A DNA stretch of 46,396 bases from a virus (lineage: Duplodnaviria; Heunggongvirae; Uroviricota; Caudoviricetes): IMG/VR virus record IMGVR_UViG_3300043451_000039, positions 128,001-174,396 of that record; one strand, written 5' to 3'. Shown here piece after piece: positions 220-41,592 of the stretch. The notes below the pieces were generated by a model, which ran no database searches, was not told where the DNA came from, and saw only the letters and a program-made list of their open reading frames with translations. The stretch's first letter is position 1. Each line of letters opens with the position of its first letter. A program made the position numbers and the translations under genes.

Positions 220-294
220 TGGTACTCGGTAGGGGAGTTGAACCCCTCTTCTCAGGTTGAAAACCTGATGTCCTAACCGATAGACGAACCGAGT
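220..294 (-). tRNA. tRNA-Glu(TTC)
   Basis: Cloverleaf, anticodon arm tcagg-ttTTCaa-cctga, encoded CCA. Confidence 0.95.
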
Positions 295-410
295 AAAGGT
301 GGTGGTTTTTGATATACGACTAGTAAAACCACCAAACTAGCATTTGCCTTATGCAACGTATTTACCGTTGACTTAGAAAGGTCTTTAGAGTATTAACTAA
401 CTAAGACACT

Positions 411-439
411 ATTATACATCATCTATTCATAAAAGTCAA
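411..439 (-). promoter_or_regulatory. sigma70-type promoter internal to the tRNA array
   Basis: TTGACT-N17-TATAAT. Confidence 0.8.
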
Positions 440-469
440 GCGAAATTTGACTATTTTTACAAAATACTT

Positions 470-543
470 TGGAGTAGGTGACAGGAATCGAACCTGCTTC
501 CATGGGTTTGCAATCCAGTGCCCGTCCAACTGGCTCCACCTAC
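470..543 (-). tRNA. tRNA-Cys(GCA)
   Basis: Anticodon loop ttGCAaa, GTTCGA T-loop, U73-CCA; two mismatches in the anticodon stem. Confidence 0.85.
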
Positions 544-546
544 ATT

Positions 547-625
547 TGGTACCCTTGCTGAGATTCGAACTCAGAACAACTTCTCCTTTTGAGAGAGACG
601 ACTTTGCCAATTTGTCCACAAGGGC
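547..625 (-). tRNA. tRNA-Leu(CAA), short variable region
   Basis: tctct-ctCAAaa-ggaga, CCA end. Confidence 0.9.
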
Positions 626-626
626 A

Positions 627-701
627 TGGTGGGCTCATCGAGAGTTGAACTCGAACCTTATCAATTATGAGTTGACTGCACTACCTTTATGCTATAAGCC
701 C
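627..701 (-). tRNA. tRNA with CAT anticodon (Ile2 or elongator Met)
   Basis: gtcaa-ctCATaa-ttgat; paired G1-C72, so not the initiator; A73-CCA. Confidence 0.9.
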
Positions 702-708
702 AACAATA

Positions 709-785
709 TGGTGCGTCTGGAGGGACTCGAACCCCCAACCATTGGTGTAGAAGACCAGTGCTCTATCCAATTGAGCCACAGACGC
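709..785 (-). tRNA. tRNA-Arg(TCT)
   Basis: ctggt-ctTCTac-accaa, CCA end. Confidence 0.93.
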
Positions 786-790
786 AAATT

Positions 791-874
791 TGGTACGAGA
801 GGCGGGACTCGAACCCGCATGTCTTTCAACGGGAGATTTTAAGTCTCCTGAGTATACCATTTCTCCACTCTCGC
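791..874 (-). tRNA. tRNA-Leu(TAA)
   Basis: ggaga-ctTAAaa-tctcc, long variable arm, CCA end. Confidence 0.95.
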
Positions 875-944
875 ATGGCTCCGTCATATTTTTTATTTTA
901 ACAGGGCGAGAACGGAAGCACCCCTGATTAGTCGCGACGCAACT

Positions 945-1032
945 TGGCGGTAAGTATAGGAATCGAACCTATGCGCCCATTTCTGAACGACAGTTTAGCA
1001 AACTGTTGCAATAACCACTCTGCCAACTTACC
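945..1032 (-). tRNA. tRNA-Ser(GCT)
   Basis: acagt-ttGCTaa-actgt, long variable arm, G73-CCA. Confidence 0.95.
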
Positions 1033-1623
1033 TTAATAGTTACCATTCTTGAATCCCACGCTACCACCTTCGTCTTTGATTCTTTGAATCACGTCCTCAA
1101 ACAAGATGGGTCTGAAGTCTGTTTGTTCGACACAGACGCAGTGGTAGCGTGGATCAATGTAGTTACTGTAGATAACTTCTCCAGTATCAGCATGAGCACC
1201 ACGAGCCTTCATTACACGATTTGCGTGTAAGTGCCCATGAATGTTGACACCGAACCTACCTAACGATGCTTCATGAAGTGGTATATGACTTAAGATCATC
1301 CCATTCATTACATGATATGCACGTAACTCACGAAAGTGTTCACGGTATTCATCATCTCTAAAGATATCATGGTTACCACGAATTAAAACTTTATCACCAT
1401 TCAAACGATGCATAATGTTTAATGCTTTGCGATTGATAACAACATCACCAAGATGATAAACCTTATCAGTTGGCTTTACTGTTTCGTTCCATCGCTTGAC
1501 CATTTCCTCATCCATTTCATCTGGATCAGTCCATGGTCTTAACTTCTCACCATCGTCACGAGTGAATCTGCATACACCAGCGTGACCAAAGTGCGTATCG
1601 CTTACTAAAAATACACTTGGCAT
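1033..1623 (-). CDS. calcineurin-like metallophosphoesterase embedded in the tRNA array
   Basis: SDTHFGH, HLGD, GNHD, SH and HGHLH motifs; start trimmed to MPSVFL (GAAAGGA SD) because the longer ORF overlaps tRNA-Ser. Confidence 0.9.
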   Translation of the reverse strand: MPSVFLVSDTHFGHAGVCRFTRDDGEKLRPWTDPDEMDEEMVKRWNETVKPTDKVYHLGDVVINRKALNIMHRLNGDKVLIRGNHDIFRDDEYREHFRELRAYHVMNGMILSHIPLHEASLGRFGVNIHGHLHANRVMKARGAHADTGEVIYSNYIDPRYHCVCVEQTDFRPILFEDVIQRIKDEGGSVGFKNGNY

Positions 1624-1645
1624 ATACATCCTTTCATTATTAAAT

Positions 1646-1739
1646 TGGCGGAGAGCAGAGGAGTCGAACCCCATCCGATTTTAGTCAGAACCCAGTTTTC
1701 AAGGCTGGTCGCAGTACCATCACCGCTGCATTACTCTCC
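1646..1739 (-). tRNA. tRNA-Ser(TGA)
   Basis: ccagc-ctTGAaa-actgg, long variable arm, G73-CCA. Confidence 0.9.
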
Positions 1740-1746
1740 ATAATCT

Positions 1747-1822
1747 TGGCACCCAATAGAGGAATCGAACCTCTACCTCTGCGTTCGTAGCACAGTATGA
1801 TCATCCATTTCACCAATCGGGC
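1747..1822 (-). tRNA. tRNA-Arg(ACG)
   Basis: ctgtg-ctACGaa-cgcag, CCA end. Confidence 0.93.
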
Positions 1823-1828
1823 ATAACT

Positions 1829-1903
1829 TGGTGCATCGTGAGAGGATTGAACTCCCGACCTTCTCCTTGTAAGGGAGACACTCTACCGCTGAGTTAACGA
1901 TGC
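1829..1903 (-). tRNA. tRNA-Val(TAC)
   Basis: tctcc-ctTACaa-ggaga, CCA end. Confidence 0.95.
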
Positions 1904-1910
1904 ATATTTT

Positions 1911-1985
1911 TGGTGGACCGTAAGAGAATCGAACTCTTACCTTCGACGTGCAAAGCCGACGTGCTCCCATTATCACTAACAGCCC
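1911..1985 (-). tRNA. tRNA-Ala(TGC)
   Basis: tcggc-ttTGCac-gtcga, G3:U70 identity pair, CCA end. Confidence 0.95.
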
Positions 1986-1991
1986 AAAAAT

Positions 1992-2065
1992 TGGTCTCGG
2001 TGGGAAGAATCGAACTTCCGACACATGGTCCCAAACCACGAATTTTACCACTAAACTACACCGAG
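1992..2065 (-). tRNA. tRNA-Pro(TGG)
   Basis: cgtgg-ttTGGga-ccatg, C1-G72, A73-CCA. Confidence 0.95.
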
Positions 2066-2066
2066 A

Positions 2067-2140
2067 TGGTGCCCCATGACAGAATCGAACTGCCGTAACC
2101 TGATTACAAAACAGGTGTAATACCATTATACTAATAGGGC
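2067..2140 (-). tRNA. tRNA-Thr(TGT)
   Basis: cctgt-ttTGTaa-tcagg, CCA end. Confidence 0.92.
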
Positions 2141-2190
2141 AAAACGACATACAACTTATCTCATTATACTCCGCATGTCAGGGAGAGGCA

Positions 2191-2264
2191 TGGTGCTCAG
2201 TACAAGAATTGAACTTGTAATAAACGCTTATCAAGCGTCCGTTATACCATTTAACTAACCGAGC
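2191..2264 (-). tRNA. tRNA-Ile(GAT)
   Basis: gacgc-ttGATaa-gcgtt, CCA end. Confidence 0.93.
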
Positions 2265-2270
2265 AAAATT

Positions 2271-2346
2271 TGGTGCAACCTGTAGGGATCGAACCTACTT
2301 CAATGGCTCTTCAGACCACCGCTATGACCACATCAGCTAAAGTTGC
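2271..2346 (-). tRNA. tRNA-Phe(GAA)
   Basis: gtggt-ctGAAga-gccat, CCA end. Confidence 0.92.
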
Positions 2347-2347
2347 A

Positions 2348-2422
2348 TGGGGTATCGTATGAGAATTGAACTCATGATGACGGAATCACAACCCGTAGTT
2401 TTACCACTAAACTAACGACACC
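2348..2422 (-). tRNA. tRNA-His(GTG)
   Basis: acggg-ttGTGat-tccgt, G-1:C73, CCA end. Confidence 0.93.
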
Positions 2423-2433
2423 ACTGAAACATT

Positions 2434-2507
2434 TGGTAGGGGCACAGAGAATTGAACTCTGGTTAATAGGTTAAAAGCCTACTACTTTACCACTAAGTTA
2501 TACCCCC
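2434..2507 (-). tRNA. tRNA-Lys(TTT)
   Basis: gtagg-ctTTTaa-cctat, CCA end. Confidence 0.93.
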
Positions 2508-2515
2508 AAAATTTA

Positions 2516-2597
2516 CCATAGTGAAGTACATTGCCTGGACCACGTCAACAGGTATCGGTCATCCCCCTGCAACTAATCACAATGTACTTCACTATGG
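2516..2597. repeat. perfect 18-bp inverted repeat between tRNA-Gln and tRNA-Lys
   Basis: ccatagtgaagtacattg (2516-2533) / caatgtacttcactatgg (2580-2597). Confidence 0.9.
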
Positions 2598-2668
2598 CAC
2601 CCGAGATAAGAATCGAACTTATACTAACAGAGTCAAAGTCTGCTGTGCTACCACTACACCACTCGGGA
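2595..2668 (-). tRNA. tRNA-Gln(TTG)
   Basis: gcaga-ctTTGac-tctgt, G73-CCA. Confidence 0.93.
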
Positions 2669-2702
2669 ACATTGATACGCAAATTTTTAAAGAACTGACG
2701 TG

Positions 2703-2731
2703 ATTATACATTAAGTATTAATCAAAGTCAA
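2703..2731 (-). promoter_or_regulatory. sigma70-type promoter immediately before the tRNA array
   Basis: TTGACT-N17-TATAAT. Confidence 0.8.
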
Positions 2732-2764
2732 GCGATAACCTTACACGATGGTAGGGATTACCTC

Positions 2765-2803
2765 AAAAACAAAAAACCCCGAGACTTTCATCATCGGGGT
2801 TTT
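2765..2803 (-). terminator. intrinsic terminator of the putative attenuator
   Basis: AAAACCCCGA-N11-UCGGGGUUUU followed by UUGUUUUU. Confidence 0.85.
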
Positions 2804-2828
2804 GGGAAACAAAGTAGGTTGTTACACT

Positions 2829-2966
2829 TTACTTTCCAAAACCCCCAGTATCATACTCAATCGCTAAAGTTGCTGGTGTTCCATTAAACTGTGAGCGTGA
2901 GCAAACCCAACCACTATTAAGCGGTAGATGTTTATTCATCGTTCTGGATATGTTTAATGTTTTCAT
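2829..2966 (-). CDS. 45-aa putative leader peptide MKTLNISRTMNKHLPLNSGWVCSRSQFNGTPATLAIEYDTGGFGK (not in the ORF track)
   Basis: ATG 7 nt after a TATAAT (leaderless); all 20 amino acids present; 3' end overlaps the antiterminator arm. Confidence 0.7.
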   Translation of the reverse strand: MKTLNISRTMNKHLPLNSGWVCSRSQFNGTPATLAIEYDTGGFGK

Positions 2967-2973
2967 AGTAGAA

Positions 2974-3002
2974 ATTATACTACACCTTTGAGTAAAAGTC
3001 AA
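2974..3002 (-). promoter_or_regulatory. sigma70-type promoter of the leader ORF
   Basis: TTGACT-N17-TATAAT. Confidence 0.8.
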
Positions 3003-3074
3003 GCGATATTTTTAATAACCTTACAGTTCGTAGGGTTATCTAATATATAGGAAACTTTCTTAACTGTAGAGCCT

Positions 3075-3103
3075 ATTATAGAGGGATTTTTGATAAAAGT
3101 CAA
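3075..3103 (-). promoter_or_regulatory. second upstream sigma70-type promoter
   Basis: TTGACT-N17-TATAAT. Confidence 0.75.
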
Positions 3104-3106
3104 GTT

Positions 3107-3670
3107 TTATTTTAACAAAGTTGCAACTGCTTCAGGAAGAACAGGAACATCCATTCTTTCTGGATGCCACACGATACCAAAAATTGGTAAGTGTTCATGA
3201 CGGAATGCTTCAATCGTTTGATCTGGCTCATGAATAGCAAGAGGTATCATACCCTTACCAAGTTGCGTGATAGTTTGTCCATGGTAACTGTTAACATTAA
3301 CTTTCTTACCATCCATAACAACTTCATGTTCTGAGTGATCATGAGCAGGAACAAGGTTCCAGTCGATTTGATTCACACCACCAGTCAACTCATTGATAGC
3401 GAATGCGCCATGGCAAACACCAAGAATAGGTTTCTTCTGTTTAATTGCGTGATAAAAAAGATTGTTTTCTGTTATGTTACGGGCAATGCTATCAGAACCA
3501 CCAGATAGAACAAGACAATCGAATTCAATTGTCTCATCTACTTTACCGATATTGCCGTGAGGGATCAATGAATGATTGCCTAAGAAAGAATACCAGCTTC
3601 TCTCTAGGCAATCAAATAAAAAATTATTAGGAGGGATATGGTAATCCCTCTGTGATATCAAAATTTTCAT
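3107..3670 (-). CDS. class I glutamine amidotransferase / peptidase C26 (gamma-glutamyl hydrolase-like)
   Basis: LSGG, GVCHG nucleophile elbow, NSYH, WHPE. Confidence 0.9.
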   Translation of the reverse strand: MKILISQRDYHIPPNNFLFDCLERSWYSFLGNHSLIPHGNIGKVDETIEFDCLVLSGGSDSIARNITENNLFYHAIKQKKPILGVCHGAFAINELTGGVNQIDWNLVPAHDHSEHEVVMDGKKVNVNSYHGQTITQLGKGMIPLAIHEPDQTIEAFRHEHLPIFGIVWHPERMDVPVLPEAVATLLK

Positions 3671-41563: not shown

Positions 41564-41592
41564 ATTATACTATAAATCGGAATGAAAGTAAA
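41564..41592 (-). promoter_or_regulatory. early-type promoter
   Basis: TTTACT-N17-TATAAT, 5 nt before the ATG. Confidence 0.75.

Follow-up and report, generated by a model that had tools for sequence, protein, structure and literature searches.

The closest described relatives of the element examined here are the ribosome-mediated attenuators of amino-acid operons (trpL, hisL, leuL, pheL and the multivalent thrL and ilvL). In these systems, a short open reading frame (ORF) is translated first, and the position of the ribosome determines whether an antiterminator or an overlapping terminator is formed; a ribosome at the stop codon masks the 5' strand of the antiterminator, and the choice is kinetic although the terminator is the more stable structure. 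A locus with the same general layout is found at the head of a tRNA gene array in a Caudoviricetes genome (IMG/VR record IMGVR_UViG_3300043451_000039). The stretch analyzed here, hereinafter the window, comprises 46,396 nucleotides (positions 128,001 to 174,396 of that record), which correspond to the 46-kb end of a phage genome of 174,396 bp that has terminal repeats, and the encoded proteins indicate a T4-like phage distantly related to Stenotrophomonas DLP_6 and Caulobacter Cr30. The element probably acts as a ribosome-mediated leader-peptide transcription attenuator with read-through as the default state; it would respond to the decoding capacity as a whole and exert feedback on a complete set of tRNAs. 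Unlike the amino-acid-operon attenuators, it contains all 20 residues, mostly once and without runs, lacks a 1:2 anti-antiterminator, so that an untranslated leader would result in read-through, appears to be expressed as a leaderless mRNA, precedes tRNA genes instead of genes for biosynthetic enzymes, and matches no Rfam leader.

Several other systems share particular features with this locus. In bmrB-bmrCD (PMC4191407), the vmlR leader (PMC9226507) and the toiL upstream ORF (PMC12121999), a ribosome lagging in the leader ORF shifts folding toward the antiterminator or prevents termination; what is sensed is impaired translation, not one metabolite, and the system is on when the ribosome lags. 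These systems, however, respond to ribosome-acting antibiotics and control resistance or toxin genes; they show no selection for complete coverage and control no tRNA genes. The leaderless polycysteine short ORFs of mycobacteria (bioRxiv 10.1101/834739) similarly combine leaderless expression with amino-acid-responsive attenuation of downstream genes but sense a single amino acid through runs of Cys, control operon mRNAs, no phage example being known. T-box riboswitches couple the charging status of tRNA to terminator read-through via an antiterminator; in contrast to the leader described here, they directly bind one specific uncharged tRNA, and no translation is involved. No T-box motif was detected in positions 2500-3200 of the window, and no Rfam family scored above the threshold in this region, the best non-tRNA match being PyrR with 23 bits against a gathering score of 54. 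A full-text search of the literature returned no description of leader-peptide control of phage tRNA genes.

All features of the locus are on the minus strand of the window. Transcription of the leader is predicted to start from a consensus promoter, denoted P2 (2974..3002), with TTGACT at 3002-2997, a 17-nt spacer and TATAAT at 2979-2974. Only 7 nt (TTCTACT) separate the -10 hexamer from the ATG (2966-2964) of the leader ORF, the A of the ATG being the eighth nucleotide after the hexamer, and accordingly the P2 mRNA is predicted to be leaderless or nearly so. The ORF (2829..2966) consists of 45 codons followed by TAA (2831-2829); 34 different sense codons occur in it, and with Asp at residue 39 the set of 20 amino acids is complete. 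Synonymous codons are used for Leu (TTA/CTA/CTT), Ser (TCC/TCA/AGT), Ile (ATA/ATT), Arg (AGA/CGC), Thr (ACA/ACG/ACT), Gly (GGT/GGA/GGG) and Pro (CCG/CCA). An earlier note, made from the sequence alone, had proposed a pan-amino-acid attenuator in front of a phage tRNA array; its coordinates for the promoter and the start codon, its description of the ORF and its codon sets all proved exact. The array itself is there as well, although not with the 18 genes that the note had counted: ARAGORN identifies 17 in the window (220..2668), namely tRNA-Gln(UUG) followed by 16 more. The full array extends past the window start and consists of 27 genes, all on the same strand, that collectively cover 20 of the 20 amino acids.

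The 3' end of the ORF is embedded in two alternative RNA structures. An antiterminator hairpin (2796..2845) has a 5' strand that runs from the last five codons across the stop codon to 6 nt past it. Here, GGGGUUUUGG (2845-2836; arm 2) is paired with CCAAAACCCC (2805-2796), and the helix is extended by an inner stem of 10 bp to which the stop codon belongs, for approximately 20 bp in all. Folding of the leader gives this complete hairpin as the minimum-free-energy structure (z = -3.6). The sequence CCAAAACCCC (arm 3), with which the 3' strand ends, doubles as the start of the 5' arm of an intrinsic terminator (2765..2803) that consists of AAAACCCCGA (2803-2794), UCGGGGUUUU (2782-2773) and a U tract extending to 2765. 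The antiterminator and the terminator thus share a strand. Both the pairing and its overlap with the terminator, as reported in the earlier note, are confirmed. The likeness to trp and his leaders that the note had drawn holds for the ribosome-masked antiterminator opposed to an overlapping terminator; it does not extend to the amino-acid runs or to the 1:2 hairpin.

Homologous elements were identified in more than 140 IMG/VR phage contigs. Scanning IMG/VR with the arm pattern GGGTTTTGG...CCAAAACCC...GGGTTTTTT yielded 104 matching contigs, and two scans that did not rely on arm 2, one with a 19-mer located before tRNA-Gln and the other anchored on the terminator, added approximately 45 contigs with the element. 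In relatives that were reached independently of the element, via a neighboring amidotransferase gene, the promoter, the ATG offset, the small ORF, both hairpins and tRNA-Gln are all retained; amidotransferase relatives with less than 60% identity (L012-L036) have no nearby tRNAs and are uninformative. Within this family, arms 2 and 3 covary while the encoded C-terminus of the peptide changes: GGGUUUUGG/CCAAAACCC is associated with GGFGK, GGGUUUGG/CCAAACCC with EGLDKK and GGLASR, GGGUUUAAGAAA/UUUCUUAAACCC with RGLRK, GGGGUGGGAU/AUCCUACCCU with EGWDG, and CGAGGG/CCCUCG with GARDV. Changes from A to G are accommodated as G.U pairs in both helices. The GC-rich stem and the U tract of the terminator are conserved in all members, and the stem covaries as well (CCCCGA, CCCUCUA, CCCUCG, CCCUCUG). 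The mean folding energy over the family is -19.4 kcal/mol for the antiterminator, compared to -14.5 kcal/mol with the interior shuffled, and -17.6 kcal/mol for the terminator. In the terminator-anchored set, the last 2-7 codons sequester 78% of the terminator 5' arm in the nascent transcript, compared to 44% in shuffles. The covariation of both arms among homologs agrees with what the earlier note had predicted.

The consequences of ribosome position were explored with a model in which the ribosome masks up to 13 nt past the first base of the A-site codon and the transcript ends at arm 3. For the leader in the window, arm 3 is fully sequestered when the A site holds any of codons 2-37 and is free from codon 39 to the stop; on average over the family, the same step occurs at -3 to -1 codons from arm 2. 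When masking was modeled at equilibrium on the full transcript, the two states were not separated; they were separated in the truncated-transcript version.

The second line of evidence comes from the amino-acid content of the leader peptide. The calculation of chance frequency that the earlier note had called for shows that a random 45-mer with the composition of this phage's proteome is complete with a probability of 0.012, which falls to 0.004 at a length of 40 aa and to 0.0014 at 36 aa; under uniform composition, the respective probabilities are 0.086, 0.036 and 0.013. Among the 210 ATG-initiated ORFs of 36-46 codons in the six frames of the 174-kb genome, only this leader is complete. Completeness in a single genome is by itself a 1-in-100 curiosity, and the comparative data are decisive. 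Among the 74 distinct pattern-derived peptides (36-46 aa), 59 contain 20 amino-acid types, and all 74 contain at least 19, despite the divergence of the peptides, in which Cys, His, Tyr, Gln, Glu and Val have moved to other positions in a compensating manner, as could be expected from the earlier note. The merged set consists of 131 distinct peptides (33-47 aa), with 20 types in 91, 19 in 39 and 17 in one. A divergent homolog with different arms (L158, 41 aa) also contains all 20 amino acids, and coverage is completed before the arm-2 codons in every case.

The peptides are homologous, and null models were chosen that preserve homology. When residues were shuffled within the columns of the alignment, the number of complete peptides was 8.0 on average and 16 at most out of 74, compared to the 59 observed. 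In a tree-aware simulation (1000 runs) that employed the family tree, a per-column residue profile, a fitted rate and a complete root, the mean was 10.2 and the maximum 31, and the mean number of peptides with at least 19 types was 35 compared to 74 observed. The rare residues illustrate how coverage is retained. Cys occurs exactly once in 93% of the peptides but is spread over 7 alignment columns and diverse contexts (IVC, LSC, NCGW, SCGW, WTC, WNC, VVCKH and also LPCV), a single His is found in 99% (over 5 columns) and a single Tyr in 100% (over 6 columns); a lineage that loses a residue at one site carries the same residue elsewhere. Given that these residues are present in a single copy and yet shift position, it is the coverage as such that is under selection, and evolution has maintained all 20 amino acids in the leader.

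The third line of evidence is the genomic context. In all 87 pattern-derived elements with more than 400 nt of downstream sequence, tRNA-Gln(UUG) is the next gene, at a distance of 50-541 nt. Arrays of up to 31 tRNAs lie behind these leaders (20-31 in the family), and no tRNA is encoded upstream or on the opposite strand. The second set, obtained without reference to arm 2, shows the same context, the sole exception being L180, in which the first tRNA is tRNA-Trp. No promoter-like site separates the terminator from the first tRNA in 33 of the 87 elements; the distance between the two is at most 60 nt in 29. In the phages without an intervening promoter, no entry into the first tRNAs is visible other than by way of the leader promoter, and therefore the terminator cannot merely close an unrelated gene.

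Two additional observations bear on translation of the leader. Across the family, the ATG is located 6, 7 or 10 nt past the -10 hexamer in approximately 67 distinct contexts, and in approximately 9 contexts there is instead a Shine-Dalgarno sequence, AAGGAA, 6-9 nt 5' of the ATG. The existence of a minority with a Shine-Dalgarno sequence in place of the leaderless start argues for translation of the ORF. Furthermore, selection on amino-acid content is sensible only for a translated frame. From these indirect indications, together with other leaderless ORFs in the genome (described below), we infer that the leader ORF is probably translated.

A feature absent from the earlier note is a hairpin inside the ORF (hairpin P, 2905..2929) that spans codons His13-Trp20 (HLPLNSGW). 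Assessed sequence by sequence, its pairs covary across the members of the family (CCACU/AGUGG, CCGUU/AACGG, CCAUU/AAUGG), and in one subfamily a shifted version, CAGCUAC/GUAGCUG, is found. The folding energy is -6.4 kcal/mol for the native sequence, compared to -3.15 kcal/mol for synonymous-codon randomizations; RNAalifold applied to the codon alignment of the ORF yielded no consensus structure. Hairpin P accounts for a large part of the positional conservation in the peptide and is a candidate pause hairpin for RNA polymerase. It does not overlap arm 2, and there is accordingly no trp-like 1:2 anti-antiterminator. A second ORF-internal hairpin suggested by the leader fold (CACGC...GCGAUUGAG) was discarded as unsupported (z=0 against synonymous randomization).

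The following scenario can be proposed for the operation of the element. RNA polymerase would start at P2, with the 5' end of the transcript at or within approximately 3 nt of the AUG, and a 70S ribosome would translate the 45-codon leader while a pause at hairpin P may keep the polymerase coupled. A ribosome that arrives in time at the end of the ORF would mask the 5' strand of the antiterminator, so that the terminator folds and the transcript ends at approximately 2765-2771. A delay of the ribosome at one of codons 2 to ~38, or failure of a ribosome to load, would allow the antiterminator to form first, with read-through into tRNA-Gln and the rest of the array. Such a delay could be caused by a shortage of any charged tRNA, whether through starvation, host shut-off or a tRNA-cleaving defense, given that each amino acid is represented in the leader, most of them a single time. 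With tRNAs for all 20 amino acids in the array, the circuit would be a negative-feedback homeostat of decoding capacity. A response to starvation or tRNA cleavage is what we infer from this architecture. In its most specific form, the hypothesis is that the leader is a 'pangram' sensor: a single frame of 36-47 codons, selected to include every amino acid, would monitor the whole aminoacyl-tRNA pool, and the complete tRNA set of the phage would be transcribed only when the decoding of any amino acid slows, for instance because host tRNAs are lost after shut-off to degradation or are cleaved by anticodon nucleases, PrrC, PARIS or retron effectors among them. We consider the chances of this specific version to be about even.

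Several observations weigh against the proposed attenuator and its sensing function. The leader has no amino-acid runs, and its rare residues are present exactly once. Classical attenuators depend on tandem codon runs, and the sensitivity of isolated single codons is therefore doubtful. The codons of the leader fit the phage tRNAs no better than ordinary phage codons do: the sampling of isoacceptors suggested in the earlier note is not borne out by the 81% match compared to 79% expected, and the idea that codons are chosen to fit the phage tRNAs was rejected (727 readable codons of 897 compared to 708 expected, uncorrected for relatedness). Coverage is incomplete in some of the 131 leaders, with Val missing in 24 and Cys in 13, and the arrays behind these leaders still encode tRNA-Val and tRNA-Cys. 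The position of some residues is problematic as well: the sole Asp codon invariably precedes arm 2 by 2 codons, at the edge of the modeled sensing window, Glu and frequently Tyr likewise lie near arm 2, and with a footprint of +13 nt, a ribosome stalled at Asp would already cover much of arm 2. At equilibrium, the complete transcript prefers the terminator together with the inner stem over the antiterminator, so the choice between the two structures must be kinetic; in the trp leader, the terminator is likewise favored at equilibrium and the decision is kinetic. The positional conservation of HLPL..GW..R and the nucleotide conservation of CGC, GCG, GAG and GAT are explained only in part by hairpin P. 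In this phage, promoter P3 (2703..2731), located 3' of the terminator, would bypass the switch, and the upstream promoter P1 (3075..3103) possibly does so too. Finally, no cultured relatives that carry the element were found.

Among the alternatives, the one that fares best, although we still regard it as unlikely, is an attenuator that reports only general ribosome availability or transcription-translation coupling and not the supply of each aminoacyl-tRNA. The default-on architecture without an anti-antiterminator, the single codons in place of runs and the lack of a match between leader codons and phage tRNAs are all compatible with this possibility, as is the sensitivity of leaderless initiation to the state of the ribosome. 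Under this explanation, however, the selection for coverage would have no cause, and the relocations of residues far exceed the tree-aware nulls.

Still less probable is that the ORF is a separate small-protein gene, equipped with a promoter and a terminator for itself, such that the tRNAs are expressed from other promoters or by leakage and the hairpin merely stabilizes the 3' end. The positionally conserved residues P15, W20 and R24, along with the location of P3 3' of the terminator in the window, are in line with such a gene, and so is the annotation of the family in metagenomes as hypothetical protein: a profile search of 5.8 billion proteins retrieved 54 related clusters, all metagenomic, without a Pfam domain and labeled at most 'hypothetical protein', and no named or curated family for the 45-aa product is among them. 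Nevertheless, all occurrences of the element are at the head of a tRNA array, approximately one third of the members have no promoter between the terminator and tRNA-Gln, the C-terminus of the peptide varies freely while the RNA pairing is retained, and the conserved HLPL..GW block falls on the covarying hairpin P. A folded, functional 40-mer would also not account for the rule of one of each amino acid. The third alternative, a nascent-peptide arrest leader of the TnaC, SecM or Erm-leader type in which a ligand- or factor-dependent stall sets the choice of terminator, is very improbable despite the invariant, regularly spaced Pro, Trp and Arg, residue types that recur in known arrest peptides, because synonymous substitutions in the codons for Leu, Pro, Leu and Gly follow the base-pairing of hairpin P, arrest peptides need not hold all 20 amino acids, and no similarity to known leader families was found.

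The ribosome-mediated attenuator that senses decoding capacity thus appears to be the best account of the element, which is surrounded by additional promoters. The two downstream promoters listed in the earlier note, P3 and a further one beyond it at 411-439, both exist, the latter likewise 3' of the terminator; P3 is absent in about one third of the relatives. P1 (TTGACT-17-TATAAT), which the note did not include, lies 100 nt upstream of P2 and is kept in relatives L004-L010. In predicted P1 transcripts, the leader ORF is preceded by a 5' untranslated region of approximately 105 nt without a Shine-Dalgarno sequence. The output of P1 would be either an untranslated RNA of approximately 60 nt that ends at an inverted repeat or ORF transcripts without a ribosome-binding site that escape the attenuator. 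This inverted repeat, AACCCTAC-N5-GTAAGGTT (3017..3037), directly precedes the -35 element of P2. Repeats of the form (A)ACCCTAC-N4-6-GTA(A/G)GGTT are located directly 5' of the -35 element of several consensus promoters, with copies at 3017-3037 (the leader promoter) and 2735-2755 (P3) in the window and at approximately 110521, 19887 and 9499 in the genome. In some relatives, such as L151, the repeat is followed by a T run. These repeats may be weak terminators or insulators, or else operators.

The leader promoter is not the only one in this genome with a start codon close to the -10 hexamer. Four other consensus TTGACT-17-TATAAT promoters open leaderless ORFs, with the ATG 5-6 nt downstream: one at 41592 of the window (minus strand; ORF 41558-40542) and those at genome positions 106191, 103526 and 93767, the respective products being 338, 63, 168 and 70 aa long. 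Thus, leaderless mRNAs seem to be a regular feature of the early genes of this phage. At approximately 116038 and 9499 of the genome, outside the window, two consensus promoters are followed, 6 nt on, by almost identical 8-codon mini-ORFs (MKVEKDLK and MKVEKDPK) that may encode additional leader peptides.

Some variation among the arrays and their leaders is of separate interest. Besides the tRNAs for the 20 amino acids, the array includes one with a CUA anticodon (denoted 'Pyl' by ARAGORN) at genome positions 127373-127449, just below the window start; such a tRNA is also found in the arrays of L045, L083 and L107. It is amber-suppressor-like, and TAG recoding or read-through may occur in these phages. 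The leaders that lack Val include a clade (L165, L166, L170, L176, L186, L187 and relatives) with the C-termini EGLDKK, GGLASR or GGLAST, in which both hairpin arms are one base pair shorter in step (GGGUUUGG/CCAAACCC) and the arrays encode tRNA-Val. The possibility that leaders without Val, Cys or Gln are matched to arrays without the respective tRNA was rejected. In L141, L142, L148, L150 and L157, the 19-mer and tRNA-Gln are present at the head of the array without a leader, and a divergently transcribed gene abuts the tRNA; in this lineage, the attenuator was thus lost or never gained. The nearest cultured phages by the helicase-like protein (Stenotrophomonas DLP_6, Caulobacter Cr30 and C48C1; ~41-46% identity) encode no homolog of the peptide, and no comparable switch was seen at the head of the 37-tRNA array of DLP_6. 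Just before that array (L164:1045-1260, ~102,844-103,059 of the record), there is a tmRNA-like sequence with GGGGAUGCCCAGGUUUCGACGGGG, one frame of which ends in ANDDSFAPMAIAA, resembling a tmRNA tag. Among the matches from a scan of genome contigs, two are due to chance, and one is a true 2-kb member binned in a metagenome-assembled genome of Saccharibacteria; no host was assigned from these matches.

Altogether, the strong comparative evidence supports the view that this element extends ribosome-mediated attenuation to a leader with complete amino-acid coverage placed ahead of tRNA genes. The reason for the large tRNA sets of phages is a 50-year-old question, and the control of these sets is, to our knowledge, essentially undescribed. 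According to recent studies, phage tRNAs replace host tRNAs that are lost to degradation or to tRNA-targeting defenses (PMC10264068, PMC11464382, PMC11555353). If the proposed mechanism is correct, these would be the first tRNA genes known to be subject to translation-sensing attenuation, and the leader would be the first attenuator to sense all amino acids together, as opposed to one to three. Should the 'pangram' reading hold, the phage would possess a self-correcting homeostat of translation capacity with a built-in trigger for counter-defense. The element could also act as a compact reporter of global decoding capacity. More generally, the proposed mechanism would imply that selection can target the amino-acid inventory of a peptide instead of its sequence.

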